Shown here: positions 10,746 to 57,491 of the stretch, one piece after another | Layout of the letters: each line of letters begins with the position of its first letter | Numbering within the stretch: position 1 is the stretch's first letter | DNA from: a virus | Taxonomy: Duplodnaviria > Caudoviricetes | IMG/VR virus record: IMGVR_UViG_3300022173_000225 | Span: 2,905-66,904 of that record | Length of the DNA stretch: 64,000 nt | Reading direction: 5' to 3' (one strand) | Position numbers and translations under genes: made by a program | The notes under the pieces: model-generated | What the model was told of the DNA's origin: nothing | The model's input: only the letters and a program-made list of their open reading frames with translations | Database searches by the model: none

Positions 10746-10980
10746 AGTGGGCCAGGGCTTCTTCGTGCCCTGTGTCGACGTGGCCAAGGTCCGCGAAATC
10801 GGCCTCAGGGCAGCCGTAGGCGCTCGGGTGAGGGCAGAGGGTCGCCCCGCCATCGTTCGAGGCGCCTACGGCGTTTGGTTCAGCCGCCTGCCCGACGCTG
10901 TGCGTCGCGGATCTGGCGCGCCAGCGTCAACTCCACCTGCCGCAGACGGTCCACCTGATCCCGCTTCTGATCCGGGGTGA
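10720..10980 (+). CDS. Hypothetical protein, last + strand gene of the replication block
   Basis: MTWPWNRLEVGQGFFVPC...GVWFSR; 3' end overlaps convergent gene. Confidence 0.6.
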   Translation: MTWPWNRLEVGQGFFVPCVDVAKVREIGLRAAVGARVRAEGRPAIVRGAYGVWFSRLPDAVRRGSGAPASTPPAADGPPDPASDPG

Positions 10981-16900: not shown

Positions 16901-18916
16901 CCGGTCCAGGGTGGAGACCATCTGACCGAAAGAGCGGTAGCGTGCGTCCGTGAGCGACTGGCGCCGCGCAGTCTCGGCGGGGAGCTTCATGCCGGCGGCC
17001 TGCTCCAGATCCTTGCTCTTGATCTCGGAAGCGTCGGACTGCTTGGTCTTGGCGTCGGCTTCACGCGTGCGGTTGTCGTCACGCAGCGCGCGCAGTTCCT
17101 GCACGATCTCGGAGACCCGCTCCTTGTTCTGGCTGGCGCGCGCGATGTCCAGATCAGCCATCACCTGCGCTTCACTGCGCGCGGTGCCCGCTGTACCTGA
17201 CCCGACACGGGCCGTTTCCTGCGGCTCAGCGAACAGACGAGGCTGCTGCACGGCCTCACCGATGCCACCGGCGGCCTGCTTGATGCGGTCGATCTCGTAG
17301 TTGAAGTTGCCTTCGTCACGCTGTGCGTCGGCCTGTTCGGTGCTGTCGCGGAACATGTCCAGGGTGGAGTCGTCCCTACCCGTGCGCTGCGCGCGCAGCT
17401 GCTCATCCCGTCGAGCCAGTTCCTCTTTGGTCAGCTGGGTGAACGCGCGTTGGTTGTTGCCCTCAATGTCGATGCGGCGGGTCTTGCCCAAGTCCAGTGA
17501 ACCCTGCACGCCACCCAATGCTTCAAGCTGCTCGGCCAAACGTAGTGCTTTGGTGGTATCTCCGGCTTCATCGGCCTGCTCGATCTGCTTCTGCAGCTTG
17601 GCTGCGCGCCGGGCCGTTGCGTCGGTGTCCGGCAAGTCGAGCGCCTTGAGTTCCTGCTCGGCCAGTGATTTGGCTTGTCGCAGCTGGTCCATGAGGCGCT
17701 CGCGCTCGGTGCGCTCTGCCAGTGTGGCGCCGCCCTGGTTCGACTGGCGGATCTCGTCCATCCGGGCGTCCAGCTGCGGGATGGTGGCGCGCAAGAAGCC
17801 CGCGCGCTGCACAGGGTCCTCGGCTGCCTCAGGTGTCGGCTGCACGTCGGGCGTGTTCTCCATGCCGGGCAGGGAGCCCTGGGCCGCACCCGTGTCGGGC
17901 ATGACGGCGGCCGGCGCGTTGCGTTCGGCTTCGATCAACCCGGCTTCACGTTGCTGCGCGGCTTGCTGCTCGGCAGCGCGCTTCTTGGCTTCCTCTTCGT
18001 CGGCCATGCCCTGGCTCTTGCGGGCAGCCGCGCCGCGCTCGACAAACGTGCCAGCCGGCGACAACGTGCCTGCCATGATGGCGCCGCCGAAGAAGCTCTG
18101 CAGGTACTCGCCGCGGGCCTCGGGGTCTACAGTCGACAGGCCCGCCTGCGCGCGCTCCAGAACCTGCTGCATCGTCTCGGTGAGACCTTCGGCCGTCATG
18201 GCCTTGCCCGTGCGCTGCGCGTACTCCATCGCGATCTGCTTGGCGGTCTGCGCGGCCATCTCCTTGGCCGTCTCTGCAGTCACCTTCTGGCCGGCGGCTC
18301 CGAACAGCTTGCCGATGCCGGGGATGAAGCGAAAGCCGATGACGTCCAGTGCTGCCTGAGGCACAGCAGCCATGGCGGCGTTGGCGCCACTCGTGTCCTC
18401 GAGCGACGTCTTGTTGGCCTGCATGCTCCGGTCAAGGTTGGAGCCGAAGAACTGCGCGCCAGAGGCCAGACCTGCAAGGCCTGCACCGGCCAACGCCGGG
18501 GCACCGAACGCTGCTGCACCACCCGCCAGTGCCAGCGGGGCCACCATGTAGGGGGCCGAGCCACCCAGCAGTTCCTTGACGTTCTGCACCGGCGCTTCGA
18601 GGAAAGACTCCTCGGTGGGCTTGAAGATCTGCTGCGCGCGCTGCTGGCGCTCGGTGTTGAACTGCTCCGCCGCCTGCGTGTCCATGAGCCCGGCTTTGCC
18701 TGCGGCAAGGGCGCCCTGGCCGGCGAGGCGCTGCGCACCTGCCTTGAGTGCGGGCATGAAGCCGCCCTGCGGTTGCTCGCCGGGAGCCGGCGCTGCAGGT
18801 TCGATGCCGAAGGCCGTGGGGTACTCGCGCTGGGCGCGCTCCCACGCATCAGCTGGCTGCTCCCCCTCGCGTACGGTTACGAAAGATCCATCCGGCAGGG
18901 GGAGGTACTGGGCCAT
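10880..18916 (-). CDS. Large polyvalent/ejected virion protein (~2678 aa) with HExxH peptidase motif and LPD38-like C-terminus
   Basis: Start MAQYLPLPDG; long coiled-coil; VMHEFVHAAT (13841-13855); PFFNAQVQG, KVPIPFELG; last gene of late operon. Confidence 0.75.
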   Translation of the reverse strand: MAQYLPLPDGSFVTVREGEQPADAWERAQREYPTAFGIEPAAPAPGEQPQGGFMPALKAGAQRLAGQGALAAGKAGLMDTQAAEQFNTERQQRAQQIFKPTEESFLEAPVQNVKELLGGSAPYMVAPLALAGGAAAFGAPALAGAGLAGLASGAQFFGSNLDRSMQANKTSLEDTSGANAAMAAVPQAALDVIGFRFIPGIGKLFGAAGQKVTAETAKEMAAQTAKQIAMEYAQRTGKAMTAEGLTETMQQVLERAQAGLSTVDPEARGEYLQSFFGGAIMAGTLSPAGTFVERGAAARKSQGMADEEEAKKRAAEQQAAQQREAGLIEAERNAPAAVMPDTGAAQGSLPGMENTPDVQPTPEAAEDPVQRAGFLRATIPQLDARMDEIRQSNQGGATLAERTERERLMDQLRQAKSLAEQELKALDLPDTDATARRAAKLQKQIEQADEAGDTTKALRLAEQLEALGGVQGSLDLGKTRRIDIEGNNQRAFTQLTKEELARRDEQLRAQRTGRDDSTLDMFRDSTEQADAQRDEGNFNYEIDRIKQAAGGIGEAVQQPRLFAEPQETARVGSGTAGTARSEAQVMADLDIARASQNKERVSEIVQELRALRDDNRTREADAKTKQSDASEIKSKDLEQAAGMKLPAETARRQSLTDARYRSFGQMVSTLDRFNRGRADGAALKQAEQGVIDNLVREIDSITGSPMSTMERQSVMAEARDLLADLKNRFGDTRDEVNLGTRKEPQMEPVQRRGGDFRTDLPGEGAGPTGMGLENFETQDKGSRTFGNRYAAAQSILEGLDEIRNRRAGTQETGRGTDRTDSTRGQDERLATAQAQARGTAAEPLLQQVAESKVKTPALVDNAVEAAMRAQRGQDITEQQRAITDELGRLEQGKRSETEGGKTAVQPDMFGGTGVIFDSWTEFDDWLGSDALEAIKMAQGQTRETLSRAIKMVAPLQKKAADLQAQVEKLLVRRDALRALAGEEDAKSQKDVDDATAAVMEAQDVLDFATIEYSEALTAAQEKLQAAFDEDAVIAGQIADNLKQLNQAGQMQEREFTALRKAQTQMIDLSRKVADAKQKLAKYTPTLFSSSDPISRPKLAEFNRLEKQVADLEAQLVTASTRARAAHPSGLARADADGRALATFQQQARALSQQRAQQARRIGGLTSVRNRAQARLDAALAQLEVDPEFQSLRDNKSRADQILALAKDKRRGAEAGIDAVNAEATTLDREALRVGEPVPTLRQQAIERIREARGKLPGGKLETQLDRERKDGDRRRAEQETLSARQEGPGTRRESVSFEPRRLDQESLDEAGARMAVLEDILGRVPMNEEQRTQFDEAAVEYKARSEALEKKAQARLENVEGKLAAQRKRIEMLQRAQAEYDAADVDSPQRAKAQDRVARLMDQLQKQGQKLSKAWGIRREAIVSQAERLAQADTRSQSKRNADAASVESLTEGQTKRRTSSPAMRETRQTGGFRTGNAETAEQRAGSQRQRIVESQRPKERDTPVSRAEQMVANLEAKRIKDEAAAANKEAAALKKGTPPKRRKQVDDAQTVGQVLIRALEEKPRGPKSKVQSAIDDMEFDTDGYDDALLREDNAFYADRQTHDLSEEAAEAAFDGRTLDLLDDIAANGATPTLRAVAAAVRPFLLRTRTRTKDGLTIGGRRAEGALFPQRNEVVLDSMAMSQETVMHEFVHAATIRAISGDIPLNAEQQQALGDLQALYNRIKDTPEFSKEYARKDLLEFTAEIMTNPTVREKLDKYTAGSVPLLTRLYNGFLRLLGVNVPSTSTKAMVDTMRLFAPSRSFEYRHQGVPSIMRGVFPGTKPAFNADVPQDLQALATGTVGKNPSVKDKILANVAGFRAQFVDRFDPYEDLMRKGVAKGMITDLQAAQYSYFMRFGEQRNQFVEQAATNGVPQLRKTAEGDFVIETPEGQHPNLMKIAQALTKANVGNEQATEELFTTYLAVLRGEQVGFDKLNFDRPVTAEQAAEVKAFVAADPARKEAFESARQMYREYNNGLLDFLVQTGAMDKPQATALKKGDYVPYYRQDPSGVVNLIIAGETPVRIGNIKDQPYLKELVGGNDKILPFFTGAMQNTSMLIDMALRNKQTMELSNMLQTLGVGKIRKNTGPDNGTSVNFKVNGEQVHLNIEQAVEEWGVPAELLVKGLEGIKTTIPAALRAMQIPANLLRTMITRAPAYAIRQIIREPINAWLVSGGNFTPVVSSVKELSKIVQGKSAAADGLERAGAVSSNVITGDQQDQARILRDVAQGKSAWHKVMMAADKFAMQGDTATRAVLYDKFRKQGMTHMQSTLAALESMNFARKGLSPTMQMMSMLVPFFNAQVQGLDVIYRAAKGQTTFEKKLDVQRKLIQRGAMMMAGTLAYTAMMQDDDAYKNATPQERAQNWFLPLPGLDQPLKVPIPFELGFAFKALPEVMLNTAFGDTQTKDAAKAMGALAYNSLPIGMPQAIKPAIEVMANYSFYTGDSIEGRREQTVQKGERFRDNTTELAKILGKAEVLSPVQIDYLLRGYTGGLGLTLVGLSNFALRMANPSEALADGATKTANQLPLIGALFQPTDGRGVIDEAYKDIESWQQATQTYKRMIEQGRRADAQKFAQDFSMQIALNATGGAFRQQMGELAQVRRAILANKELTPDQKRDQVDRLRQVELTLARQIRDAQRRAGG

Positions 18917-18977
18917 AGCTGTGTGTGCTCCGTAGAAGCTGAAAAGCGCCGTCAAGCGGCGCTGTGATTATGCCCGG

Positions 18978-46294: not shown

Positions 46295-46314
46295 CACTTC
46301 CGAGGTCGGTGCAA
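46285..46314 (-). promoter_or_regulatory. Candidate promoter of late operon
   Basis: TTGCAC-18 nt-TACACT upstream of terS; same -35 as 5115 promoter. Confidence 0.5.
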
Positions 46315-46393
46315 CGCTTTGGCGTTGTCCTTGCTTCTCCTGATGGTTGGAAACGACCTTGAGCCCCCAAGTGCAAACCTGGGGGCTTTTTTT
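46301..46393 (+). ncRNA. Candidate trans-acting sRNA with anti-RBS loop
   Basis: Promoter upstream; stems 46302-08/46354-60 and 46311-28; loop TTGCTTCTCCTGATG complementary to early-gene RBS motif; terminator. Confidence 0.65.
46362..46393 (+). terminator. Intrinsic terminator
   Basis: AGCCCCCA...TGGGGGC followed by 7 T. Confidence 0.8.
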
Positions 46394-46575
46394 CGTCTGG
46401 AGGGGTTGTTTGGCGCGGTGGCAGGTGCTGATCTCCTGCTTTGATGCCAGTCTCATGCCGGTATGCCTACCAGCCATTTAGTCGGCGGCTTGCTCGGTTA
46501 GCCGACTTCCCGTTGAGCGCATCAGCCTGCGCATTCACCGCAGCCGCCAGTGTACCCCACGCGCGGTGGCACTTG

Positions 46576-46685
46576 GCTACTTTGACACGGGGTTTTCGTC
46601 GAATTTTTGGTGGGCCCCGGGGGTAGGGCGATCGGCGAAAACGGGGCGAATTCTGTATTTGGAGTACTTTTACGCTACTTTGACA
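46576..46685. repeat. 12-bp direct repeat GCTACTTTGACA (46576-87, 46674-85)
   Basis: Exact match in non-coding early/late junction. Confidence 0.7.
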
Positions 46686-46860
46686 TGGTTGCGCGGCGTT
46701 GGTGTGAAACAGTGTTACTACACGCCGCCACACACATCACAGATATTGGTCCCCCACCCACCCGTACCCTCGCCGCACCCGCAAAACACCGCACACCGCA
46801 ACGACAGAAAAGCTCTATTCATACAATATAGGTGTCAGTTGGATAGGCCATCTGACATAC

Positions 46861-46891
46861 CAAACCGTGAGCGATGCTCACACATCAGGAG
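46861..46891 (+). promoter_or_regulatory. Early cassette 1: palindrome B plus CATCAGGAG
   Basis: GTGAGC-GAT-GCTCAC 46867-81; CATCAGGAG 46883-91. Confidence 0.85.
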
Positions 46892-46898
46892 TTACACC

Positions 46899-47303
46899 AT
46901 GTCTTCCATCATCAACACCGCAGTCATCAACACCCTCAAGGCCGCCGCATCCTTTCAGTTGCGTGTCGCTGATCTTCGTGCTGCGCTGCCCCGCGCTACT
47001 TTGCAGGATCGTGATGCGCTTGTCATTGCGTTGCGCCCCGGCGTGGCCAAGTTCTACGGCATCGAGTGCGCTGAGCACGGTGCTACTGGCAAGTTCGTGT
47101 GCGACGACGACAAGGTCAGCATGGCCGCGCGTACCGCACTGAGCAAGCTGGTGCGTGCTGTGCAAGGCCCTGTGGCGCACGAGACGGTCGTGACCAAGGT
47201 TCGGGTCAAGGCCGCTGAGAAAAGCGCGTATGACGCGTTCTATGCAGCGTGCGGTGGCGACACCAAGCGCATGGCTGCTGTCATCAAGGCAATGAAGGCT
47301 TGA
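46899..47303 (+). CDS. Early hypothetical protein (134 aa)
   Basis: RBS CATCAGGAG; first + strand gene of early block. Confidence 0.8.
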   Translation: MSSIINTAVINTLKAAASFQLRVADLRAALPRATLQDRDALVIALRPGVAKFYGIECAEHGATGKFVCDDDKVSMAARTALSKLVRAVQGPVAHETVVTKVRVKAAEKSAYDAFYAACGGDTKRMAAVIKAMKA

Positions 47304-47410
47304 TTTACAGCGTGGTGGGCGTTGGAATTTGCTCGGTGATGCCGCGTACGTGTGGCTTTGCACGCTGTTCCAACGTCGCCACGCCTGCTTTCCCCTGCCC
47401 AACCTGTAAA
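47304..47410 (+). other. Long imperfect RNA hairpin
   Basis: 17-bp stem 47310-27/47368-84 with G-U pairs and one bulge; inner hairpin 47341-56. Confidence 0.65.
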
Positions 47411-47436
47411 CCGTGAGCAGTGCTCACACTTCGGAG
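47407..47436 (+). promoter_or_regulatory. Early cassette 2: palindrome B plus RBS
   Basis: GTGAGC-AGT-GCTCAC 47413-27. Confidence 0.85.
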
Positions 47437-47442
47437 AACCCC

Positions 47443-47661
47443 ATGACCCCAGAGAAATTCGCCCAACTCAAGCGCGAGTGCGCCAGCTACCTCACAGCCA
47501 ACGCCATCAAGACCAACAGCGTGCGAGGGCGCACTGCAATCCACACGTTCTGGTACGGCGCAATGTGCGCGCTCGACGACAAGACCGACGTCCGCGTCAG
47601 CATCCTGTTGCTCTCGGGCCGACACACCGACCTCGTCGACTTCAAACCCACCAAGGAGTAA
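47443..47661 (+). CDS. Early hypothetical protein (72 aa)
   Basis: RBS CGGAG; MTPEKFAQLK. Confidence 0.75.
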   Translation: MTPEKFAQLKRECASYLTANAIKTNSVRGRTAIHTFWYGAMCALDDKTDVRVSILLLSGRHTDLVDFKPTKE

Positions 47662-47664
47662 CCC

Positions 47665-47922
47665 ATGCTTCACCCATCCTTCTTCACCCCCGAACAGCTG
47701 GCCCGCGCCAACGAACTGGCCGGCGATCTCACACTGGCCACGGACAACGCCGAGGCAGACACACGCGCTCGTCTGCTGCGTGAACTGCGGGAAGCCACCG
47801 ATCACTACCTCCTGACCGCGCGCGTGTTCGTCGACGGGCTGCAAATGTACCGTGCGACCGGACGCCTGATCCAAGCCAAGAACGCGTGGGTCGCTGCCTA
47901 TGGAGCGCTACCCGAACTGTGA
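47665..47922 (+). CDS. Early hypothetical protein (85 aa)
   Basis: RBS AAGGAG. Confidence 0.75.
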   Translation: MLHPSFFTPEQLARANELAGDLTLATDNAEADTRARLLRELREATDHYLLTARVFVDGLQMYRATGRLIQAKNAWVAAYGALPEL

Positions 47923-47927
47923 CCTTG

Positions 47928-48006
47928 TCCGACCGGTGTCAGTACCCGGCGCAGCAGCGGTCCTGCTGCACATCAAAACCGTGAGCACTGCTCACACTTT
48001 CAGGAG
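47928..48006 (+). promoter_or_regulatory. Early cassette 3 (order A-C-B-D)
   Basis: TCCGACCGGTGTCA 47928-41; hairpin 47951-69; GTGAGC-ACT-GCTCAC 47981-95; TCAGGAG. Confidence 0.9.
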
Positions 48007-48012
48007 TTCCAA

Positions 48013-48282
48013 ATGACCTACGCAAACACCACCCGCACCGAAACTCTTCAGGGGGCGCAAGGTGCGCACCACACCCACTTCGCCCGTCTCTCCCTGCCTG
48101 CTGGCGCCATGGCGCTGCGCGCTCTGCGCCCCTCGGTGCACTCCGTGCGTCTGCCTGTGCGCTACCTGAGGAGCTACGTCTACTCGGTGCACTGCCCTGT
48201 CCCGCTCGATGCCGAGTTCTGGCCCACGCGCGAGATCCCCGTCTTCGTTAAGCGTACACGTTCTGCTTACTTGCAGCACTGA
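48013..48282 (+). CDS. Early hypothetical protein (89 aa)
   Basis: RBS TCAGGAG behind full cassette. Confidence 0.6.
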   Translation: MTYANTTRTETLQGAQGAHHTHFARLSLPAGAMALRALRPSVHSVRLPVRYLRSYVYSVHCPVPLDAEFWPTREIPVFVKRTRSAYLQH

Positions 48283-48644
48283 AAGTAATACCGGAGTACT
48301 CCTATTCAGGGGTATTCCGGGTCTTACCCACTTAATTACATCGACTTGCAAGCAGTTTGAGCGGATCAATCGCCAATAAAATCAACAACTTAGCGTTGGC
48401 AACAACATATATAACCTATCTCTTTATAGTTATAGTTATAGCCGTGGTTTTTTTTTTACACAACAGTCTTATAGCAGCCGAGCAAAATGTCGTGTTCAGA
48501 CTGCTGTGTTTTTTGTCGCGGCCAGCATGAAAAGCATCTTCAAAAAGATAGGTAACCCTGCATGTTCATGCACCTAAGCCTATGTTTCTATTAAAGATTG
48601 TGCTTTTCATACTGCGTTCAGGTCGGTGCCTATTAAGTGGACAC
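48283..48644. other. AT-rich non-coding island (candidate origin or terminus region)
   Basis: Sharp GC drop, long T-run, TATAGT tandem repeats, GGAGTACTCC palindrome. Confidence 0.5.
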
Positions 48645-48673
48645 TTTACCTGTTCAATTAAATAGCGTATACT
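48645..48673 (+). promoter_or_regulatory. Sigma70-like promoter, probably leaderless
   Basis: TTTACC-17 nt-TATACT, ATG 6 nt downstream, no SD. Confidence 0.6.
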
Positions 48674-48679
48674 GTGAGC

Positions 48680-49657
48680 ATGACCCACACTCTCTGCCGC
48701 ACTTGCAAAACCCTCAAGGCCGACGTCGATTTCCTCGGCGTGCGTGCTCCCTTCACCTGCATCGCATGCAACACTGAGCCGCTGATACAAGGCAAAGTGT
48801 GCCCCGCATGCGAGGAGTTCAGGCACGTGAAGCTCTTTCGCTACCCCCTGACGCTGGCTCAAGCCGAAGCGCGGGGCTACTACAACCACGAGGAGCGACC
48901 GATGCACGCCACATCGAAGTTCTGTTCGTACTGCCGCAAGACCCCGCCACGAGGCAAGGAACACATGCTCAAAGGCGTGCCACGCCACTACACCCCGGCC
49001 GATCTACCCGCCATACCCCGCGCCAAACTCCTGCTCGAACGCGAACGAGGGCGCCTCAAGCAAACCGCGGTGCAAGATGAACTGGACCAGCGCGACCTGG
49101 ACCGAGAGCGCAAGCGCCGGGAAGGCGGCCGGCTTGGCGGTCTGAACCGATGGGAGAAGCACGACGACAAGCGGTGGCAGTGGGTTGCGAACGAGTTGCG
49201 CAAGGAACTCCAGCGGGTGGCCACCAAGATGCCCGGCCTGCAGCACGCAGCCGATGGCGGCGGTGACACGGCGCGCGCGAAGCTCGCCTTCCATGTGGCG
49301 TACAAGCAGGCGCTGCGTGAGGCACGTAACAAGGCGGTCGTGGGTCTGGGCGCATCCAAAGAGGGGGAGCACAAGTGGCGGGACCTGCTCGGCGCCCTGC
49401 GGATGGTTGAACTGGAGCAGTTGTGGGGTGTGATCGACCACATGGCCCGGCCTGTCGAGCGCGAAGAGGGGGGCAAGAAGAAGTACGCGAAGCCTGGGCG
49501 GCCGGCGAACGTGCCTCTGTTGCTGGCGCGCCGGGATGCGGACCTGTTCGAAGGCTGCCCCGTCAAGACCCGCACCGAGCGGGTTGCCCCGGTCAAGGAA
49601 AAGCCTTTCAAACACTACGTGCACAAGCCGCACGTCGACAACACCTGGGATGCATGA
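48680..49657 (+). CDS. Multi-CxxC Zn-ribbon protein (325 aa)
   Basis: CRTC, CIAC, CPAC, CSYC; basic helical C-terminal half. Confidence 0.75.
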   Translation: MTHTLCRTCKTLKADVDFLGVRAPFTCIACNTEPLIQGKVCPACEEFRHVKLFRYPLTLAQAEARGYYNHEERPMHATSKFCSYCRKTPPRGKEHMLKGVPRHYTPADLPAIPRAKLLLERERGRLKQTAVQDELDQRDLDRERKRREGGRLGGLNRWEKHDDKRWQWVANELRKELQRVATKMPGLQHAADGGGDTARAKLAFHVAYKQALREARNKAVVGLGASKEGEHKWRDLLGALRMVELEQLWGVIDHMARPVEREEGGKKKYAKPGRPANVPLLLARRDADLFEGCPVKTRTERVAPVKEKPFKHYVHKPHVDNTWDA

Positions 49658-49658
49658 C

Positions 49659-50117
49659 ATGACGCAGTTCGAATTCGTGAAGCACCGCTCGGCCTTCGAC
49701 CACCTGCGTTGGCAGTGGCTCATTGACTTGTGCCGGGAAGAACAGAAGCGGTGCTACAAACGCCGCAGCTACCGCTTGCAAGCAGCCCATGGGCACGGAG
49801 CCAACGGCGTACTGGGCGTGCGCAATGCGAACAGAGACGACTATCTCAGCACGTATCTGCAATTGCTGCAGGCAGTTGCCCGACAGGCCAAGCTATGGCA
49901 AGCACAAGGGAAGGCGACCCTTGACCACACGACGTGGGAGCAGTTGGTAGGGGCTGTGAATCTACAAAACCTGCGCAGGCTGTACGAAAACGACGCCGAA
50001 CTCCGCGAGCTTGCGCGCTCCCATAGAGGTCCACTTGCCGCACCGCCGTTCATGCTGACGCAGCAGGACACTCCCGTCTTCGCGCCATGCAAGTGGAGGC
50101 TGGAGGCAGACATCTGA
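49659..50117 (+). CDS. Hypothetical protein (152 aa)
   Basis: Starts 1 nt after upstream stop; ends right before motif A. Confidence 0.65.
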   Translation: MTQFEFVKHRSAFDHLRWQWLIDLCREEQKRCYKRRSYRLQAAHGHGANGVLGVRNANRDDYLSTYLQLLQAVARQAKLWQAQGKATLDHTTWEQLVGAVNLQNLRRLYENDAELRELARSHRGPLAAPPFMLTQQDTPVFAPCKWRLEADI

Positions 50118-50118
50118 A

Positions 50119-50222
50119 TCCGACCGGTGTCAAAGCAAACCGGCCGCTCTCGAAGAGAACGTGAGCATCGCTCACACCCGGCGCCACAGCGGACCTGTGG
50201 CAGTTCAATCAGGAGAAAGCAA
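50119..50222 (+). promoter_or_regulatory. Early cassette 4 (order A-B-C-D)
   Basis: A 50119-32; B GTGAGC-ATC-GCTCAC 50161-75; hairpin GCCACAG-CGGAC-CTGTGGC 50183-201; ATCAGGAGAAAGCAA. Confidence 0.9.
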
Positions 50223-51124
50223 TGAGTCATTTCACAGTCATGGTCATCGGAGCAACCGACGTCGCAGCAGCGCTGCAGCCCTTCCACGAGTACGAGTGCA
50301 CGGGCATCAAGGACCAGTACGTGATCTGGGTGGATGAGACCGAGGAGGTGCGCAAGGAGTGGTTGGGGCTCAGTGCCGATGACAAGGCGGAGTACAAGAA
50401 CCTTGTCCACTTCGCTGAAAGTTGGTTCGGCTACGAGGAGAGCGAGGACAAGCCGGGCACCTACGGCCACTGGACGAACCCGAACCGCAAGTGGGACTGG
50501 TACCAGATCGGCGGTCGTTGGTCGGGCTTCTTGAAGCTCAAGGCCGGCGTCAAGGGCAAGCTCGGCTCGCGCAGCCTGCTGGACAGCAGCCCCGATGACA
50601 GGCGTGGACGTGCAGACCAAGCGCGCAAGGGCGACATCGACGTGGCGGGCATGCGCGACGAAGCGGGTGAGAAAGCAGGTGCCAAGTGGGACATCATCAA
50701 CCCGGTGATCGCCCCGCACGAGATGACCTACATGGACTGGGCACTGGCGCAGGAAATGTCGATGCGTGACGGCAAGGTGGACTACGAGCTCGCACGCAAG
50801 ACGTACCACGGGCAAGACCTGATGATGGCAGTGCAGGCAGTCGCACAGGACAAGAGCAACCCGCACCGTGAGATGTTCGTGTGGATCGACGATGTGCAGC
50901 AGTACCTGCGCCCGCGGGATGAGTTCGTGCAGATCGCGCGCAACGGGGCCATCGGCACCTTCGCTGTGTTGAAAGATGGCGAGTGGGCCGAGCGCGGTGA
51001 GATGGGTTGGTTCGGCATGGTCAGCAACGAGGGCGACAAGAACGCCTGGGACCAGCAGTTCAATGACATGTTCGACGCGCTGCCCGACGACACGCTGATC
51101 ACAATTTGTGATTGTCACATATAG
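50222..51124 (+). CDS. Conserved phage protein (300 aa)
   Basis: MSHFTVMVIG, NPNRKWDWYQIGGRWSG, GEWAERGEMGWFG, DCHI end. Confidence 0.85.
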   Translation: MSHFTVMVIGATDVAAALQPFHEYECTGIKDQYVIWVDETEEVRKEWLGLSADDKAEYKNLVHFAESWFGYEESEDKPGTYGHWTNPNRKWDWYQIGGRWSGFLKLKAGVKGKLGSRSLLDSSPDDRRGRADQARKGDIDVAGMRDEAGEKAGAKWDIINPVIAPHEMTYMDWALAQEMSMRDGKVDYELARKTYHGQDLMMAVQAVAQDKSNPHREMFVWIDDVQQYLRPRDEFVQIARNGAIGTFAVLKDGEWAERGEMGWFGMVSNEGDKNAWDQQFNDMFDALPDDTLITICDCHI

Positions 51125-51180
51125 TCTTGTCATATCTGACGAGTTGATGTACGCTGCATTTCTTTTTGAAAGGAGAAGCA

Positions 51181-51696
51181 ATGCGGCACGAATGGCGCCC
51201 TGTTCCAGGGTACGAAGGCATCTACGAAGTCAGACAAGGCAAAGACGGGGGGCGTGTGCGAAGAGTGCAGCCCCTTGCACGCACGCGCGTTGGTAGAGAA
51301 CTGTTTGGGCTCGACGCCAACGGCTACCCGCGAGCCGTGCTCACAGGCGCTGATGGCAGCGTCAAGTACACGCGAATGCACGTACTCATCATGCGGGCCT
51401 TCGGCCCCCCACAACCCTGCCCGCTGCACGTAGTGCTGCACAAAGACGACGTCAAGAAGCACAACGTCATAGGCAATCTTGTGTGGGGTACAAAGTCGCA
51501 AAACCTGCTCGACTCGTGGGCCAACAAGCGACGCAAGGCCTGCACACCAGCGGGCGCAGCACACCCGAGGTCCAAGCTCACGCCAGCACAGGCAAAACGC
51601 ATCCGCCTCAGCAAGAAGCCTTTAAGCGAAATGGCCCTTGAAATGGGTGTGTCCAAGCAAACAGTGTGGCGAGTGCGCACACGCAAGAGCTATTAA
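51181..51696 (+). CDS. NUMOD4-HNH homing endonuclease (171 aa)
   Basis: WRPVPGYEGIYEV, VLHKDDVKKHNVIGNLVWGTKSQN. Confidence 0.88.
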   Translation: MRHEWRPVPGYEGIYEVRQGKDGGRVRRVQPLARTRVGRELFGLDANGYPRAVLTGADGSVKYTRMHVLIMRAFGPPQPCPLHVVLHKDDVKKHNVIGNLVWGTKSQNLLDSWANKRRKACTPAGAAHPRSKLTPAQAKRIRLSKKPLSEMALEMGVSKQTVWRVRTRKSY

Positions 51697-51697
51697 A

Positions 51698-51774
51698 TCC
51701 GACCGGTGTCGGCCGGCGCAGCAGCGGTCCTGCTGCAAAACCGTGAGCATCGCTCACACATCAGGAGAAAGCAA
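51698..51774 (+). promoter_or_regulatory. Early cassette 5 (order A-C-B-D)
   Basis: A 51698-711; hairpin 51718-36; B 51743-57; CATCAGGAGAAAGCAA 51759-74. Confidence 0.9.
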
Positions 51775-52127
51775 TGGGTCAATACTGGATGCCAGTGAAT
51801 CTGGACAAGAAAGAATACCTGCACCCCCACGACATGGGTGACGGCGCCAAGTTGTGGGAGCAGGCGTTCAGCGCGGGTGGGGTGGCCTCCGCATTGGTGT
51901 TGTTGCTCGCACCACTACCTATCAGGCGCGGTGGTGGGGATCCGAGCGACTTGACGCACGTTGGCCGGTGGGCAGGGGACCGCATCGTGTTCGTCGGGGA
52001 CTACAGCGAGAAGGACGACTGCAAGGTGCGCAGCTTCGGCACGCTGTACAAGCGCGTGCGTGAGAACAAGGGGTACACCAACATCTCGGATCTGGCCAAG
52101 GCCATGGTCGATAGCAACAACAGCTGA
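51774..52127 (+). CDS. Conserved early protein (117 aa)
   Basis: MGQYWMPVNLDKKEYL, GRWAGDRIVFVGDY. Confidence 0.85.
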   Translation: MGQYWMPVNLDKKEYLHPHDMGDGAKLWEQAFSAGGVASALVLLLAPLPIRRGGGDPSDLTHVGRWAGDRIVFVGDYSEKDDCKVRSFGTLYKRVRENKGYTNISDLAKAMVDSNNS

Positions 52128-52139
52128 AGGAGAAAGCAA

Positions 52140-52574
52140 ATGAAACGCACCATCGCAACCCTCGCGCTGCTCTTCGCAGCCCTCACCACCCACGCACAAG
52201 GCCTCATGCCCGAGACCGTCGGGCTGCATCTGGCCAGCAAGCACAGCAGCTACAAGCAGCAGTGGAACGACGCCAACGTCGGTGTGTACGCACGCTGGGG
52301 CAACGGCATCACGCTGGGCACCATGCGCAACTCCGAGCGCACGCAGTCCTACTACGCGGGGTGGACAGGCGACTGGGCACTGACCAAGCGCATCGATGCT
52401 GGCCTCACGCTGGGCCTGATCACGGGGTACAAGCGCGCGAAGGTGCTGCCGATGGTGGTGCCGAGCCTGCGCCTCGCAGTGACCGAGAACCTGGGCCTGC
52501 GCACCAGCTACATCTTCAACCCAGACAAAGGAGGTGCACACGCACTGCACATATCAGCCGAGTGGAAATTCTGA
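52140..52574 (+). CDS. PagP-like outer-membrane beta-barrel protein (144 aa)
   Basis: Signal peptide ending THA, HLASKH, NDANVG, RNSERTQSYYAG, C-terminal EWKF. Confidence 0.65.
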   Translation: MKRTIATLALLFAALTTHAQGLMPETVGLHLASKHSSYKQQWNDANVGVYARWGNGITLGTMRNSERTQSYYAGWTGDWALTKRIDAGLTLGLITGYKRAKVLPMVVPSLRLAVTENLGLRTSYIFNPDKGGAHALHISAEWKF

Positions 52575-52594
52575 TCAACAACTGAAAGAGAACC

Positions 52595-52888
52595 ATGAGA
52601 AATTCGAAATCCGCGCTGCTCGCAGCACTCGCCATGTCCGCACTTGTGACAGCGGGCACCAACTCAACCGCTCGACCCGGCGGCGTGCTTGTGATCGACG
52701 AGAGCACGCAGCTGCGCAATATCCCCGCAGATCGTGGCCAGAACGTGCCCGGTGACACGAAGAGCGACAGGCTGGGCACTGGGTACTACCGACGCCACAA
52801 GGCGCCTGTGGGCAAGCGCTACCGCGCATCCGTCAAGCAACATCAACGCCACGCCGCCAAGGCACGCAACAGAGCCAAGATGCGCTGA
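52595..52888 (+). CDS. Hypothetical protein, hydrophobic N-terminus and basic C-terminus (97 aa)
   Basis: Co-oriented; ends 2 nt before motif A. Confidence 0.65.
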   Translation: MRNSKSALLAALAMSALVTAGTNSTARPGGVLVIDESTQLRNIPADRGQNVPGDTKSDRLGTGYYRRHKAPVGKRYRASVKQHQRHAAKARNRAKMR

Positions 52889-52890
52889 CA

Positions 52891-52961
52891 TCCAACCGGT
52901 GTCAAAAACGTGAGCGTTGCTCACACCCGGCGCAGCGGCGGTCCCGCTGCATATCAGGAGA
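52891..52961 (+). promoter_or_regulatory. Early cassette 6 (order A-B-C-D)
   Basis: TCCAACCGGTGTCA; GTGAGC-GTT-GCTCAC 52910-24; GCAGCGG-CGGTC-CCGCTGC 52932-50; ATCAGGAG. Confidence 0.9.
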
Positions 52962-52967
52962 TTCCAA

Positions 52968-53450
52968 ATGGAAAAGCAAGCAATCCTCCAGAACCTGCGC
53001 GATGCGCACGACATTCTGTCCAAGGTCGAAGAGCCCATCTTTAAGCTGAGCACCTTCAAGAAAGAACTCAGCTGCGGCACCATCGCATGCGCTGCAGGGT
53101 GGTTGGCTATGTCCGAGCGCTTTGCGCCGATCATGAAGCTGGTGCCTTTCGGAGTACAGACCCCCAACGCTCACCACTTCTTCAACTTGCGCCCCGCAGA
53201 CTGGGTCGAGGGTACTGTGGAAGACAGCGCGTACTACTTCGGGTGGCTTGACGGACACTTCGGCCCGCACGCATTCGACATGCTCTTCTGCGAAAGGGGC
53301 GGCGGCATGAAAGACCTGGACCACCCTATGGCGGAGCGAGATGAAGACGACGAAGACGAGTGCGTATTCCCGGACAGCGTCACCGACAAGGACCTTGCGC
53401 TCTGGCGCATCAGGCAGCAGATCGCCGCGATCGAAGGGAGTGCGGAATGA
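52968..53450 (+). CDS. Early hypothetical protein (160 aa)
   Basis: RBS ATCAGGAG; CGTIACAAGWL. Confidence 0.8.
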   Translation: MEKQAILQNLRDAHDILSKVEEPIFKLSTFKKELSCGTIACAAGWLAMSERFAPIMKLVPFGVQTPNAHHFFNLRPADWVEGTVEDSAYYFGWLDGHFGPHAFDMLFCERGGGMKDLDHPMAERDEDDEDECVFPDSVTDKDLALWRIRQQIAAIEGSAE

Positions 53451-53836
53451 AAGGCAAACCAATCGAGCCAGGATGTCTGGCCATGATCGTGGGGTCCAAG
53501 CGCAACCCCGAAAACAACGGGAAGACGGTACGTGTTCTTCGCGTGGCGGCATTCGAAGAGCGCCCCCCTGAAGCGAATGCGGTGGCTAAGCAAAAGGGCA
53601 TACGTTTCATACCGCTCCCGCCCGAGGTAGCGAACCTCAAACGCTGGTGGGTCGAGCCTGTCCACGGGCTGCTTCAGTGGCGCAGCGCGCGAGGGCGTGT
53701 TGACGCGGACTGCGCGGCGCGGAGCTACAAAGAGAAGTTTCTAATTCGCCTTGACGATGACGAAGCACCCAAGGAAGTCACCCGTACGGTTGTCAAGAAC
53801 GCACCCAAGAGCAAGCCTGTCGACGAAGTCATTTAA
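53447..53836 (+). CDS. Early hypothetical protein (129 aa)
   Basis: ATGA-coupled; PGCLAMIVG. Confidence 0.75.
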   Translation: MKGKPIEPGCLAMIVGSKRNPENNGKTVRVLRVAAFEERPPEANAVAKQKGIRFIPLPPEVANLKRWWVEPVHGLLQWRSARGRVDADCAARSYKEKFLIRLDDDEAPKEVTRTVVKNAPKSKPVDEVI

Positions 53837-53847
53837 GGAGAAGAAGC

Positions 53848-54450
53848 ATGACCCCCATCAAGACCATCAACTCGCGTGTGCCCGGCCTCGTAGCGCACAT
53901 CTACCAAGACTTTGCCCCCGTGTCACCCGCGGAGTGGGACAACCTGGGCGAGATCACCTACAACAAGGCCGCGCGCTACGTGCTGGGCACGCACCCCAAG
54001 TCCGCCGAGCAGGACGCCGAGATCGCACGCATGGTGCGTGACGGTGAGGCCTACGGCCTGCCTGTGTGGGCCTACGTGCACAGCGGCTCGACGATCAAGG
54101 CTGCGCTGACCAATCCCTTCGGCTGCCCATGGGACAGCGGGCGCAGTGGCTGGGCGTACGTGATGAAGGACAAGGCGCTCAAGGAGTTTGGCCGCAAGCT
54201 GCCATCGCGCAAGCTGAAGTTCCGCATTCTCGACGTGCTCAAGGGTGAGGTCGAGACGTTCAATCAGTGGCTCAACGGCGACGTGTACGGCTACCGCATC
54301 GAGCTCAACGGCGAGCAAGTGGACAGCTGCTGGGGCATGTACGGCCTGGAGGAGACGGTCAAGGAGGTCACGCTCTTGCTCGAGCTTGAGGCTCGACGCA
54401 TCGCGCCGATGCAGCAGATGGAACTTGAACTTCAAGGAGCAACAGCATGA
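53848..54450 (+). CDS. Conserved early protein (200 aa)
   Basis: PVWAYVHSG, CPWDSG, EVETFNQWLNGDVYGY, DSCWG. Confidence 0.85.
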   Translation: MTPIKTINSRVPGLVAHIYQDFAPVSPAEWDNLGEITYNKAARYVLGTHPKSAEQDAEIARMVRDGEAYGLPVWAYVHSGSTIKAALTNPFGCPWDSGRSGWAYVMKDKALKEFGRKLPSRKLKFRILDVLKGEVETFNQWLNGDVYGYRIELNGEQVDSCWGMYGLEETVKEVTLLLELEARRIAPMQQMELELQGATA

Positions 54451-54653
54451 GATACAAGGGCTACACCTTGGAGAACCACTACCTGCCGGGCAGCACGTTC
54501 CGAATCAAGGACGGTCGCGTCATCAACCGCAAACCAACGCTCAAAGACATCGACTACGTCCGCGCCACTCCGGACGACGGCGGCCATGCGCTCAACTGCG
54601 CGAACATGTCCGAGGCCAAGGCGTGGGCGGACAAGTGGCCGGTAAAGAAGTAG
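54447..54653 (+). CDS. Early hypothetical protein (68 aa)
   Basis: ATGA-coupled, RBS AAGGAG. Confidence 0.75.
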   Translation: MRYKGYTLENHYLPGSTFRIKDGRVINRKPTLKDIDYVRATPDDGGHALNCANMSEAKAWADKWPVKK

Positions 54654-54654
54654 T

Positions 54655-54729
54655 TCCGACCGGTGTCAAAAATGTGAGCGCTGCTCACACAACCCGCGCA
54701 GCAGGGGTCCTGCTGCAAATCATCAGGAG
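54655..54729 (+). promoter_or_regulatory. Early cassette 7 (order A-B-C-D)
   Basis: A 54655-68; GTGAGC-GCT-GCTCAC 54674-88; hairpin 54698-716; CATCAGGAG 54721-29. Confidence 0.9.
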
Positions 54730-54735
54730 TAAATC

Positions 54736-55146
54736 ATGGGTACACGTTCAATCACCACCATCATCGACAACCAATGGGGCAAGCCCTCCAAGGTCTGCAC
54801 CATGTACGCACAGTTCGACGGCTACCCCAGTGGCCACGGTCAGGCACTCTTCGACTTCCTTGTGAAGATGAAGCCCTGCAACGGCCTGGGCGGCAAGGCT
54901 CCGCAGGGAATGGAGTGGGCCAACGGCGCAGGGTGTCTGGCTGCACAGATGATCAAGCACTTCAAGGACGGCCCCGGCGGGCATTACATGACTGCGCCGC
55001 GCGTCACGCTCGACGGTGAGGACTACGGCTACGAGGTCACGTTCGAGCAGAACATGACGCTCACTGTTGTGGTCAAGAGTTACAAGGGCAAGGTCTTCAG
55101 TGGCAGCCTGCACGACTTCGGTATCTTTTGCGCAAAGGACAAGTGA
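54736..55146 (+). CDS. Conserved early protein (136 aa)
   Basis: MGTRSIT, YAQFDGYPSGHG, NGAGCLAAQMI. Confidence 0.85.
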   Translation: MGTRSITTIIDNQWGKPSKVCTMYAQFDGYPSGHGQALFDFLVKMKPCNGLGGKAPQGMEWANGAGCLAAQMIKHFKDGPGGHYMTAPRVTLDGEDYGYEVTFEQNMTLTVVVKSYKGKVFSGSLHDFGIFCAKDK

Positions 55147-55147
55147 C

Positions 55148-55312
55148 ATGAAGACAACGCCAAAAGTGCGCGAGCTCATCGCGGCTTGCAGCCAACCAGC
55201 TTGCCGGCGCGGCGCGCAGTACCGCATCAAAAAGACGGGACGTCTCATCTGCATGCTTTGTGCCAAATTACTGGACAAAGACGAGATCACTCAAATCGAG
55301 GAGAAAGCATGA
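55148..55312 (+). CDS. Small Cys-containing protein (54 aa)
   Basis: CSQPAC...CMLC; coupled to neighbours. Confidence 0.55.
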   Translation: MKTTPKVRELIAACSQPACRRGAQYRIKKTGRLICMLCAKLLDKDEITQIEEKA

Positions 55313-55515
55313 ACCACCCACCCTACGGACCCAACGTGCGCATCCGAACGCTGCGCAACACGGCCGAGCACCAAGACTACGAACTCGTCGAGGAGCGCGT
55401 CAACGACAAATGGGAAGAGCGCGGCCGCTTCGGCCATATGAGCAACGACTACGCGTTCACCGAGGCCGGTGCGCTGGCCCGCAGCTTGGCAACGAAACAC
55501 ATCGGAGGGCATTGA
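55309..55515 (+). CDS. Early hypothetical protein (68 aa)
   Basis: RBS AGGAGAAAGCA. Confidence 0.75.
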   Translation: MNHPPYGPNVRIRTLRNTAEHQDYELVEERVNDKWEERGRFGHMSNDYAFTEAGALARSLATKHIGGH

Positions 55516-55516
55516 G

Positions 55517-55864
55517 ATGCTTGCAATCATTGACCAATACAACGCGGCCAAGCAGGCCATCTTCGATCACGTCGGCTACGTCGAGAACTGGGTGGTGATC
55601 CCGCTCAACGACGACCGTGAGATGTTCTGGCGCTTGGAAGGTGGCGAGGGTGTCGGCGGCGTTCTCTGCTACGCGCCCACGGAACACGACTTGCATGACG
55701 AAGCCGGCAGCGTCTACTACGAGGACGAGATCTACACGCAGCGATTCTTGCCCAAGTGGGTCTATCGCGGGGCCGAGTTCACCATCGTGTGCTGCAACCC
55801 CGGCGTGGACGGCAACAAGTTTCTGCGCATTCTCGACAACACCAAAGAAAGGAACCCATCATGA
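55517..55864 (+). CDS. Early hypothetical protein (115 aa)
   Basis: RBS GGAGG; operon context. Confidence 0.75.
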   Translation: MLAIIDQYNAAKQAIFDHVGYVENWVVIPLNDDREMFWRLEGGEGVGGVLCYAPTEHDLHDEAGSVYYEDEIYTQRFLPKWVYRGAEFTIVCCNPGVDGNKFLRILDNTKERNPS

Positions 55865-56076
55865 GCTTCAAACCAGAAGTCCGCACGGGCAGCACCGACC
55901 CGAAGTTCTACGGCAACAACCTCGCCTTCGCCACACGCGAAGAGGCCGAGTACAGCGCCTACGCGCTGAGGGACCGCTGGATGCTCGTCGTCGAGTGCCG
56001 CGTGGTCGAGAGCGACCAGCCTGTGAACTACCACATCGATGTCACCACGGGGATCATGACGGAGGTTAAGCCATGA
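55861..56076 (+). CDS. Early hypothetical protein (71 aa)
   Basis: MSFKPEV, GNNLAFATREEAE. Confidence 0.8.
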   Translation: MSFKPEVRTGSTDPKFYGNNLAFATREEAEYSAYALRDRWMLVVECRVVESDQPVNYHIDVTTGIMTEVKP

Positions 56077-56435
56077 GCGAATCCTCAGAAGACTGGGCCG
56101 CCTACAAGGCGCAGCAGAAGCTGGAGCGCGCGGAGCGGCGTGCCACGGCTGAGCGGCAGCTGCAACGCACGGACATCAAGTACACCGTGCACAACGACGG
56201 CGCACACATCGTCATCGAGGAAGGCGGTGCGATCTTCGACTACTGGCCGGGCAACACACGCTGGCGCATGCGCCCGTATCGCAGTGACTTCGGTGTGGAC
56301 AAGCTGTTCGCTGCGATCGTGCAGCGGCGGCAAGTGGCCGCGGACTTCGAAGCGAAGCGCGCTCGGCACCAAGAAGATGAAGCGTTCGTCGAACGCATGA
56401 CGCGGGCATTCCCGCACTTAGGAGAAGAGGTATGA
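56073..56435 (+). CDS. Early hypothetical protein (120 aa)
   Basis: HNDGAHIVI, FDYWPG. Confidence 0.8.
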   Translation: MSESSEDWAAYKAQQKLERAERRATAERQLQRTDIKYTVHNDGAHIVIEEGGAIFDYWPGNTRWRMRPYRSDFGVDKLFAAIVQRRQVAADFEAKRARHQEDEAFVERMTRAFPHLGEEV

Positions 56436-56662
56436 AAGATCCGAAGTTCATTCAGTTGTTGGCCACTGTGGAGGAAGACGGCAACGTGCGCCAAGCCACG
56501 CCAGAGGAGCAGGCGGCACACGCGTGCCTGTGGTCTGTCTACAAGGGCGAGCCCGGTGCGTTCGAGTGGTTCGCCGACTTCAACTACTGGATAGACGCTA
56601 CGGCCTTCGCGCGCACGCAGGCGCAGATGTACGGCGCACAGCTGATCGAAGGGGGTGCGTGA
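56432..56662 (+). CDS. Early hypothetical protein (76 aa)
   Basis: ATGA-coupled; FEWFADF. Confidence 0.75.
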   Translation: MKDPKFIQLLATVEEDGNVRQATPEEQAAHACLWSVYKGEPGAFEWFADFNYWIDATAFARTQAQMYGAQLIEGGA

Positions 56663-56877
56663 TGGCCATTCAACCAACCATCATGACCGATGACGAGTTC
56701 ATCTACACCTGCTGGACCATGCGCACGTACGGTGGCGGCTTCGCGCAGCACATCGGACAGGCAGGGCATGCCGCAGACAGCTACAACAAGCAGCGCCTCA
56801 TGGCTGCCTTTCCCGACCTCTTCGAGAAGTTCGGCCCGGGGTCTTCGTTCTACATGGCTTACGTCGCCGAGCGGTGA
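56662..56877 (+). CDS. Early hypothetical protein (71 aa)
   Basis: TGATG-coupled; YGGGFAQ...AADSYNKQRLMAAFPD. Confidence 0.75.
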   Translation: MAIQPTIMTDDEFIYTCWTMRTYGGGFAQHIGQAGHAADSYNKQRLMAAFPDLFEKFGPGSSFYMAYVAER

Positions 56878-56899
56878 CGCCAACATCAGGAGAATCAAC

Positions 56900-57424
56900 A
56901 TGATCGACATCAACACCATCATCCAGCAAGCACTCGAGAAAGCCATCACCGAGGCAGTCGACAAGAAGTTTGACGAAATCGAGCTTCGCATCGAAGGCAT
57001 CGAGCAGGCGCTGCGTCACAAGAGCGACCTGGGCCCGCTGCGCGCTCAGTTTGCCGAGGACATCCAGCAGCTTGAGTACCGCATCAACAACGTGAACGAC
57101 TCCTTCAACGCAGGGCAGCGCATGCTGCTGAACTTCGAGCGGGACATGGGCACCGTCAAGGAAACCCTCAGCGGCATGCAGGAACGCTTCGCTTTGAAGG
57201 ACGTGGTCAATGCGGACATCGAGGGCATCAACAGAGTGCTCGACGAGCGCGCCAGTGTGGCTTCTGTGGAGTGTCTGGAAGAAGAAATGAATCGCATGCA
57301 GCGTCGGCTGGCTGCGGCCGAACGCGACAGCCGCGCCCCCGAACTGGACAGCCAGGAAGTGGCGGACGTCATCGCCGACCTGTTCAGCGACGGCACATTG
57401 ACCATCACCATCGACAAAGTGTGA
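56900..57424 (+). CDS. Coiled-coil early protein (174 aa)
   Basis: RBS CATCAGGAGAA; heptad-rich. Confidence 0.8.
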   Translation: MIDINTIIQQALEKAITEAVDKKFDEIELRIEGIEQALRHKSDLGPLRAQFAEDIQQLEYRINNVNDSFNAGQRMLLNFERDMGTVKETLSGMQERFALKDVVNADIEGINRVLDERASVASVECLEEEMNRMQRRLAAAERDSRAPELDSQEVADVIADLFSDGTLTITIDKV

Positions 57425-57491
57425 GCACCGCTCACGTTTGAGTCCGGCGCCGCAGCGGTTCTGCGGCATTTTTGTTTCTACACATCAGGAG
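57421..57491 (+). promoter_or_regulatory. Early cassette 8 (order B-C-D)
   Basis: GTGAGC-ACC-GCTCAC 57421-35; GCCGCAG-CGGTT-CTGCGGC 57449-67; CATCAGGAG 57483-91. Confidence 0.85.

Follow-up and report, generated by a model that had tools for sequence, protein, structure and literature searches.

What is the small hairpin that recurs between the early genes of an uncultured phage, and what could it do there? We studied it in a window of 64,000 nucleotides (nt), bases 2905-66904 of the 66.9-kb IMG/VR record IMGVR_UViG_3300022173_000225, which is rated complete. On the plus strand of this window small early genes, mostly ORFans, run from 46.9 kb on and are followed by replication genes at 0-10.7 kb. 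A first-pass annotation had described six copies of a simple hairpin (hairpin C) in this early region, with stem changes on one arm matched on the other, and had taken them as evidence for selection on structure. The selection was borne out and is greatly strengthened by relatives of the phage. The simple hairpin was not, since the flank and loop form a second covarying helix. Our results lead to the conclusion that the element is very probably a selected sense-strand RNA pseudoknot of the H-type.

Each copy sits in a gap between plus-strand genes, and all six were recovered with exactly the positions and sequences that had been reported. They are listed from the 5' flank on, together with the Shine-Dalgarno sequence (SD) and start codon that follow; motif A and palindrome B are described further below.

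47946..47970, plus strand: pseudoknot copy 1, CCG-GC-GCAGCAG-CGGTC-CTGCTGC-A; the gap reads motif A, pseudoknot, palindrome B, then SD; ATG at 48013.
50178..50202, plus strand: pseudoknot copy 2, CCG-GC-GCCACAG-CGGAC-CTGTGGC-A; SD 9 nt downstream; ATG at 50222 (300-aa gene).
51713..51737, plus strand: pseudoknot copy 3, CCG-GC-GCAGCAG-CGGTC-CTGCTGC-A; palindrome B, then SD; ATG at 51774.
52927..52951, plus strand: pseudoknot copy 4, CCG-GC-GCAGCGG-CGGTC-CCGCTGC-A; SD 5 nt downstream; ATG at 52968.
54693..54717, plus strand: pseudoknot copy 5, with a variant first helix, CCC-GC-GCAGCAG-GGGTC-CTGCTGC-A; ATG at 54736.
57444..57478, plus strand: pseudoknot copy 6, CCG-GC-GCCGCAG-CGGTT-CTGCGGC, then ATTTTTGTTTC, terminator-like; ATG at 57499. 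With this last copy the cassette-bearing early block comes to its end.

A loose pattern, GCNNCNGNGGNNCNGNNGC, gave eight matches in the window where 1.24 were expected, a number reached in 0/100 shuffles, and six of the eight are the plus-strand copies with stems starting at 47951, 50183, 51718, 52932, 54698 and 57449. All 42 stem cells are Watson-Crick pairs (100%), and three of the seven stem pairs (in four cells) are altered on both arms. Only 1 of 500 shuffles reached the observed pairing or covariation score, and pairing falls to 17-60% when the register is slid by 1-3 nt. A covariance model made from the six copies found just these six in the 64-kb window, at 43-49 bits, with the next match at 15 bits; a generic pseudoknot scan of the window gave no extra copies above background. 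The hairpin is present in both the minimum-free-energy and the centroid fold of all six gaps. Loop positions 2-3 are GG in every copy, and the 5' flank is CCGGC in five of the six, with CCCGC at 54698.

Relatives were gathered through the TerL protein, independently of the hairpin, and comprised 73 viral and 46 metagenomic loci at 53-92% identity. The closest cultured phages have a TerL identity of only about 40%, and megablast of the region against GenBank phages gave no match. Among the close relatives, G001 carries six copies, G002 four and G003 at least three, and distant lineages carry one to three; the TerL-based metagenome scan added just four copies and a contig reached through palindrome B four more. 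About 18 distinct stems were counted, and lineages have wholly different ones (for example GCCGGTG, GCCACTG, GGGGCTG, GGCAGGC, GCCAGT and ACTGGT). The covariation proposed from six copies held in this wider alignment: over 29 distinct copies, 6/7 stem pairs are altered on both sides, 99.5% of the cells are paired and 0/500 shuffles match this result. One alignment (A4), made by covariance model, mis-registers the rows with 6-bp stems and was left out of the counting. Detection by flank and loop only, with the frame CCG-N2-...-CGG and no requirement for pairing, found 29 perfect stems, versus 0-3 for four composition-matched control motif pairs. When all perfect hairpins with a 7-bp stem and a 5-nt loop in the TerL loci were tabulated, CGGNN loops numbered 23 on the early strand versus 2 on the other, and covariance-model matches in the relatives fell on the early-gene strand only.

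The residues that appeared conserved around this stem are part of a second helix. In the window, CCG stands exactly 2 nt ahead of the stem and CGG at the start of the loop, and the sole GGG loop has a CCC flank; that is, flank nt -5 to -3 are complementary to loop nt 1-3 and form a helix S1 beside the stem, S2. At copy 5 the change of the flank G to C is compensated by a loop change of C to G. Because the GGGUC loop of this copy (54698) also permits an alternative 8-bp stem, this copy taken by itself would be ambiguous. S1 was tested by scanning viral contigs with stem-only patterns in which flank and loop were left free. In the first scan, complementary triplets occurred in 9 of 23 perfect-stem matches among the matches listed; these matches were mostly due to chance and nonetheless exposed the S1 covariation. 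A second, cleaner scan gave fully complementary triplets in 15 of 29 new contigs versus about 0.45 expected, and two shifted-register controls gave 0/29. The triplets of the second scan were CCG/CGG, CCC/GGG, GCG/CGC and ACC/GGT, which together with GCC/GGC from the first make five pairs in all. In the unselected stem-only alignment S1 is 76% paired versus 50% in shuffles, its three pairs are all altered on both sides, and its covariation of 0.516 compares with 0.176 in shuffles (0/500) and 0.03-0.14 in slid registers. The same stem pattern in bacterial genomes was accompanied by a complementary triplet in only 8 of 118 cases (7%).

The resulting geometry is compact: S1 has 3 bp, L1 is always 2 nt, S2 has 6-7 bp and abuts S1 without a gap, L3 has 2-3 nt, and a 3' A is usual. 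The two helices follow in the a-b-a'-b' order of an H-type pseudoknot and each covaries. With L1 crossing a 6-7-bp S2 and L3 crossing a 3-bp S1, the loop lengths are within commonly cited limits and may be sterically compatible with the stems. The "conserved" flank and loop are thus a hidden second covarying helix. A fourth S1 pair, between position -6 and loop nt 4, was not supported on inspection. Sites with GCU/AGC triplets and matching geometry occur in two TerL-family members, L022 (minus strand, index 8202) and L045 (minus strand, 13996 and 14289), each 5-10 nt before an SD, and are possible further S1 variants.

The orientation of the element is always that of the genes. Single non-Watson-Crick pairs in credible members are eight G·U on the sense strand and no A·C, which places the structure in the sense RNA or, at a minimum, off the template strand. 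This bears on whether the element instead acts as a DNA hairpin, such as a single-stranded promoter of the phage N4 type, a priming site or a recombination site. N4 promoters form on the template strand as a 5-7-bp stem whose 3-nt loop has a central purine, and they depend on the virion RNA polymerase. The element resembles them as a short GC hairpin of similar stem length repeated in an early region, and the phage does possess a virion-associated giant protein of 2691 aa. However, the loop here has 5-6 nt rather than 3, wobble pairs are tolerated on the sense (non-template) strand only, and placement follows stop codons and SDs. The giant protein matches LPD38/polyvalent-protein families only, with no match to a solved structure or RNA polymerase family. 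Searches of this and the other large proteins for an RNA polymerase or sigma factor in Pfam, PHROGs and PDB gave no match, although very divergent polymerases could escape such detection; a control with PF00940 matched in no control genome, so that this single test is uninformative. A role at the DNA level, including the N4-like promoter suggested by the first-pass annotation, is accordingly very unlikely.

The giant protein is encoded among the structural and packaging genes (TerL, portal, major head protein) that occupy the minus strand at 10.9-46.2 kb. It is encoded at window positions 10880-18955 (minus strand); the only domain recognised in it is an LPD38 "large polyvalent protein" domain close to the C-terminus, and it adjoins an 850-aa DNA-ejection-like protein.

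Two further motifs share the gaps with the pseudoknot.

46867..57435, plus strand: palindrome B (GTGAGC-N3-GCTCAC), copies at 46867, 47413, 47981, 50161, 51743, 52910, 54674 and 57421.
47929..54668, plus strand: motif A (CCGACCGGTGTCA), copies at 47929, 50120, 51699, 52892 and 54656, just after upstream stop codons.

Every pseudoknot has a palindrome B on one side or the other, and at the first two early junctions the palindrome occurs without a pseudoknot; motif A is present in five of the six pseudoknot gaps. The pseudoknot itself lies between a stop codon and the next ribosome site, ahead of unrelated genes. The downstream genes form at least 25 unrelated clusters, which argues for a generic signal, and a gene-specific operator was rejected on this ground. 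In about half of the cases in other phages, only 0-10 nt separate the element from a preceding stop codon on the same strand.

This position also suits a translational element of the downstream gene, in which a knot on the 30S platform or standby region would insulate the ribosome-binding site (RBS) from upstream sequence, enhance initiation or dock a repressor. The 3' end of the knot is about 17-31 nt before the start codon. Where the knot is the proximal element, in many lineages, it ends 5-11 nt upstream of the SD, and in unrelated contigs of other phages the next start with an SD lies 19-34 nt downstream. Either palindrome B or the pseudoknot always fills the SD-proximal position. Against this, palindrome B intervenes before the SD at 47951 and 51718, some copies lack any SD within 70 nt, three lineages have a full intrinsic terminator between the element and the next gene, and conserved unpaired residues that a protein could read are absent. 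We therefore regard a translational role as improbable, if the foremost of the alternatives.

The companion motifs have features of their own. In every lineage of the phage family the early gaps contain a perfect palindrome peculiar to that lineage, constant per genome and differing between genomes: GTGAGC/GCTCAC in the window, and elsewhere GTGAGAC/GTCTCAC, GTGTGAC/GTCACAC, TAGGGAC/GTCCCTA, GGGCGGA/TCCGCCC and TTAGGC/GCCTAA. These were seen on the early strands of the window (46867-57435) and of L010, L016, L031, L039, L057, L060 and L067. Unlike the pseudoknot, the palindrome has the look of an operator or hairpin particular to each lineage. On the minus strand, three copies of palindrome B (46866-46882, 47980-47996 and 52912-52928) are followed by a T-run, the upstream A-run of the plus strand, and are called terminator-like by the terminator scan; they might stop antisense transcription entering the early region. 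The early strands of L019, L023, L076 and L039 have a third hairpin, GGGC-ACA(A)-GCCC or GGGGGAC-A-CACCCC, between the pseudoknot and an AAGGAG ribosome site. Ahead of the first early gene, a non-coding stretch of about 470 nt (46400-46860) holds two copies of GCTACTTTGACA, at 46576 and 46673, which may be -35 regions of early promoters in tandem; the matching -10 regions do not stand out. Pairing of the element with a neighbouring anti-RBS small RNA (46303-46395) was rejected, as inspection found no complementarity to loop or flank.

The relation of the element to terminators is informative about the side on which it acts. The first-pass annotation had held that the hairpin has no U-tract and is not a terminator, which applies to five of the six window copies, where an A follows and there is no T-run. 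The claim fails for copy 57449, which lies directly 5' of ATTTTTGTTT and is terminator-like in the terminator scan, and for its orthologues. Elsewhere an intrinsic-terminator U-tract follows the stem only in a few relatives, L086 and L089. Both the window copy at the 57449 junction and its G001 orthologue have the U-tract, and the G002 orthologue has a separate terminator immediately after it. In L123 and L259 the order is knot, terminator, SD. Together, this order and the U-tracts at the 57449 junction tie the element to the end of the upstream unit.

A position upstream of terminators, as in G002, L123 and L259, is also what a nut- or put-like antitermination signal would have, loading a factor on RNA polymerase to read through terminators of the early region. 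In the lambda boxB hairpin, a 5-bp stem carries a GNRA-like, A-rich loop that the N protein reads; boxB adjoins boxA and occurs at two sites per genome. Like boxB, the element is a small pentaloop hairpin of similar size in early transcripts, and it is repeated along one operon. Unlike boxB, it has stems of 6-7 bp, up to six sites, and CGGNN, GGGNN or GGCNN loops, neither GNRA-like nor A-rich, that are paired to the flank; CGG or its covarying alternatives are kept in the loop because they are base-paired. No boxA-like conserved box was seen in the alignments and no N-like arginine-rich protein among the early proteins. The element lies 4-11 nt from the terminator rather than close to a promoter, and is far smaller than put. 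Only its shape is conserved, and the phages that have it share almost no proteins, which argues against a dedicated phage protein partner. Thus, of the first-pass suggestion of a boxB- or put-like signal, the general setting remains and the defining features do not, and we consider such a role unlikely.

The gaps are also joints of gene replacement. Homology blocks found by blastn between the window and G001 begin or end at 47945, 50140, 51776, 52910, 54654, 57420 and 57437. They are bounded by the cassettes, the genes between blocks are unrelated, and homology stops exactly at pseudoknot copy 3 (51713..51737). One G001 copy, L209:16494 (G001:8741-8771), the orthologue of the window copy at 54693-54717, is a chimera: GCAGCAG on the 5' arm and CTGCGGT on the 3' arm come from two stem types, leaving one A·G mismatch and one G·U pair. 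It looks like a crossover between two copies within the loop, as has been mapped for the promoter-early stem-loop elements (PeSLs) of T4-like phages (PMC2839356).

PeSLs are defined by a strong sigma-70 promoter and an effective terminator (PMC2839356, PMC4122927). The cassettes described here share with them a repeated intergenic position between small early or ORFan genes, an end in the SD of the next gene, a stable stem-loop with crossovers inside its loop, and coincidence with the indel and replacement joints between close relatives, here G001. On this basis the element could be no more than the attenuator or terminator stem-loop of a mobile cassette, conserved by recombination or gene conversion and with no RNA function beyond termination, and the terminator-like copy 57449 and its orthologues are in keeping with this. 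However, a promoter scan of 46-59 kb found four sites versus 2.9 expected, none inside a cassette and none sigma-70-like alongside the element, and most copies lack a U-tract. Unlike PeSLs, for which no such behaviour is reported, the stem here varies compensatorily and is locked to a second helix. Gene conversion cannot yield about 18 stems that all keep one architecture across lineages, nor covariation of S1 among contigs that are unrelated. A purely recombinational origin of the conservation is thus also unlikely, and about as much so as antitermination.

The 300-aa early protein encoded at window positions 50222-51124 (phrog_10079) has relatives of 27-42% identity in very different phages, including contigs of 107-434 kb, and a close relative only in G001; cassettes flank its gene on both sides. 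The gene behaves as a widely travelling moron, and its use as a lineage marker was dropped when it proved to be scattered in this way.

The pseudoknot travels further than the phage family. Contigs found by the stem-only scan have 0-3 weak protein matches with this phage, and one such unrelated contig (L395) has a second copy with a different stem. In a quasi-random viral sample of 686 kb the geometry was absent, and the TerL loci gave 15 instances versus 2 in the control. Therefore, the element is lineage-restricted yet present in several unrelated phage groups. A search of 46-64 kb with the covariance models of Rfam 15 gave no relevant match at E<=1, and no paper describing the element was found in the literature searched.

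Pseudoknot topology and a location between phage genes raise the question of a small self-cleaving ribozyme, of a minimal "theta" type resembling that of hepatitis delta virus (HDV), cutting the polycistronic early RNA, as such ribozymes are abundant in phages (PMC10879173). HDV-like and theta ribozymes are nested double pseudoknots (P1, P1.1, P2, P3, with or without P4) with a catalytic C. The element is unlike them, with just two helices in about 25 nt and neither P1.1, P3 or P4 nor a catalytic-C context. When two windows of about 100 nt were searched at a threshold as loose as E<=10, Rfam models gave no relevant match and the HDV-like ones none at all, and tRNA genes are absent from the 64-kb window. 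Self-cleavage is the least probable of the readings considered, and we give it hardly any weight.

Given the fold, strand, placement and spread observed above, what does the element do? Because both helices covary and the unpaired residues vary, its action is most likely structural rather than that of a sequence-specific binding site. We propose that each copy is a compact knot in the sense transcript of the early operon, acting at gene boundaries as a mechanically stable block to exonucleases, scanning RNase E or trailing ribosomes. The knot would give the message of each cistron a protected, insulated end, and with a U-tract added the S2 stem would double as an intrinsic terminator. A self-sufficient structural role of this kind is favoured by conservation of shape only, the gene-boundary position, the ability to double as a terminator stem and the presence in phages without shared proteins. 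We put its probability at roughly 0.4. Of the roles suggested by the first-pass annotation, the 5' stabiliser comes closest to this boundary and stability reading.

Several observations weigh against a barrier. A plain hairpin already blocks 3' exonucleases, which leaves the need for a knot unexplained, and an S1 of 3 bp is thermodynamically marginal. Five of the six window copies lie 16-60 nt past the stop codon, with motif A between, and 5-11 nt before the SD where they are the proximal element, so that they might just as well act on the downstream gene. Since palindrome B can occupy the SD-proximal place, a hairpin before the SD need not be a pseudoknot specifically. Additionally, most copies were ascertained with criteria that include S2 pairing, a bias that the flank-and-loop-only and stem-only tests were meant to offset.

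Outside model phages, only a very small number of cis-acting RNA structures in phage mRNAs are known. The element described here is tiny, has two covarying helices, is absent from Rfam and is common to phage groups with almost no shared genes. It also illustrates that apparent sequence conservation of a flank and loop can really be a concealed helix. Should it act as a barrier to nucleases or ribosomes, it would be a general, host-independent way for phages to partition long early transcripts, and a ready-made 25-nt insulator part for synthetic operons.

Among known pseudoknots, the knot in the gene 32 mRNA leader of phages T2 and T4 serves autoregulation, occurs once and has a long second loop. 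Frameshift knots of the beet western yellows virus (BWYV) type combine a 5-bp S1 with a 3-bp S2 and an A-rich L3 triplex, and lie within a reading frame, downstream of a slippery site. The element shares with both a total of under 30 nt and a location in viral mRNA, and probably the two coaxial helices with a 1-2-nt loop over the deep groove of a 6-7-bp stem. It differs from both in its 3-bp S1, 7-bp S2 and variable L3 of 2-3 nt, and in being intergenic and multi-copy.

A functional parallel may lie in the exonuclease-resistant RNAs (xrRNAs) of eukaryotic viruses. The coremin or xrRNA-C motif, found in RNA viruses of plants and fungi, consists of a 4-bp hairpin (hp1) with a YGAD or YGNNAD loop, a conserved spacer of 8-10 nt and a second hairpin (hp2), and pentaloops mostly failed to stall Xrn1 (PMC10520033). 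The element is unlike coremin in its 6-7-bp stem, in the pairing of its pentaloop to the 5' flank and in requiring neither spacer nor hp2. In the gap at window positions 47929-47995 and others like it, a mini-hairpin (GAC-CGGU-GUC) can form from motif A, with an A-rich spacer and hairpin B after it; this layout loosely recalls the two hairpins of coremin, but the loop does not fit YGAD. The pseudoknot and coremin are alike as very small viral RNAs, sometimes intergenic, and coremin is thought to be a mechanical block to both 5'-3' exonucleases and scanning ribosomes (PMC10520033). We tentatively suggest, as a possibility well short of even odds, that the element may be a phage-specific "bulkhead" conserved in shape only, a 25-nt knot at gene boundaries that would physically halt host RNases and possibly also ribosomes or Rho. 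If so, the lifetime of each cistron would be set independently and genes could be swapped as self-contained, insulated modules, and the knot might then be the bacterial-virus counterpart of the exonuclease-resistant RNAs of eukaryotic viruses.

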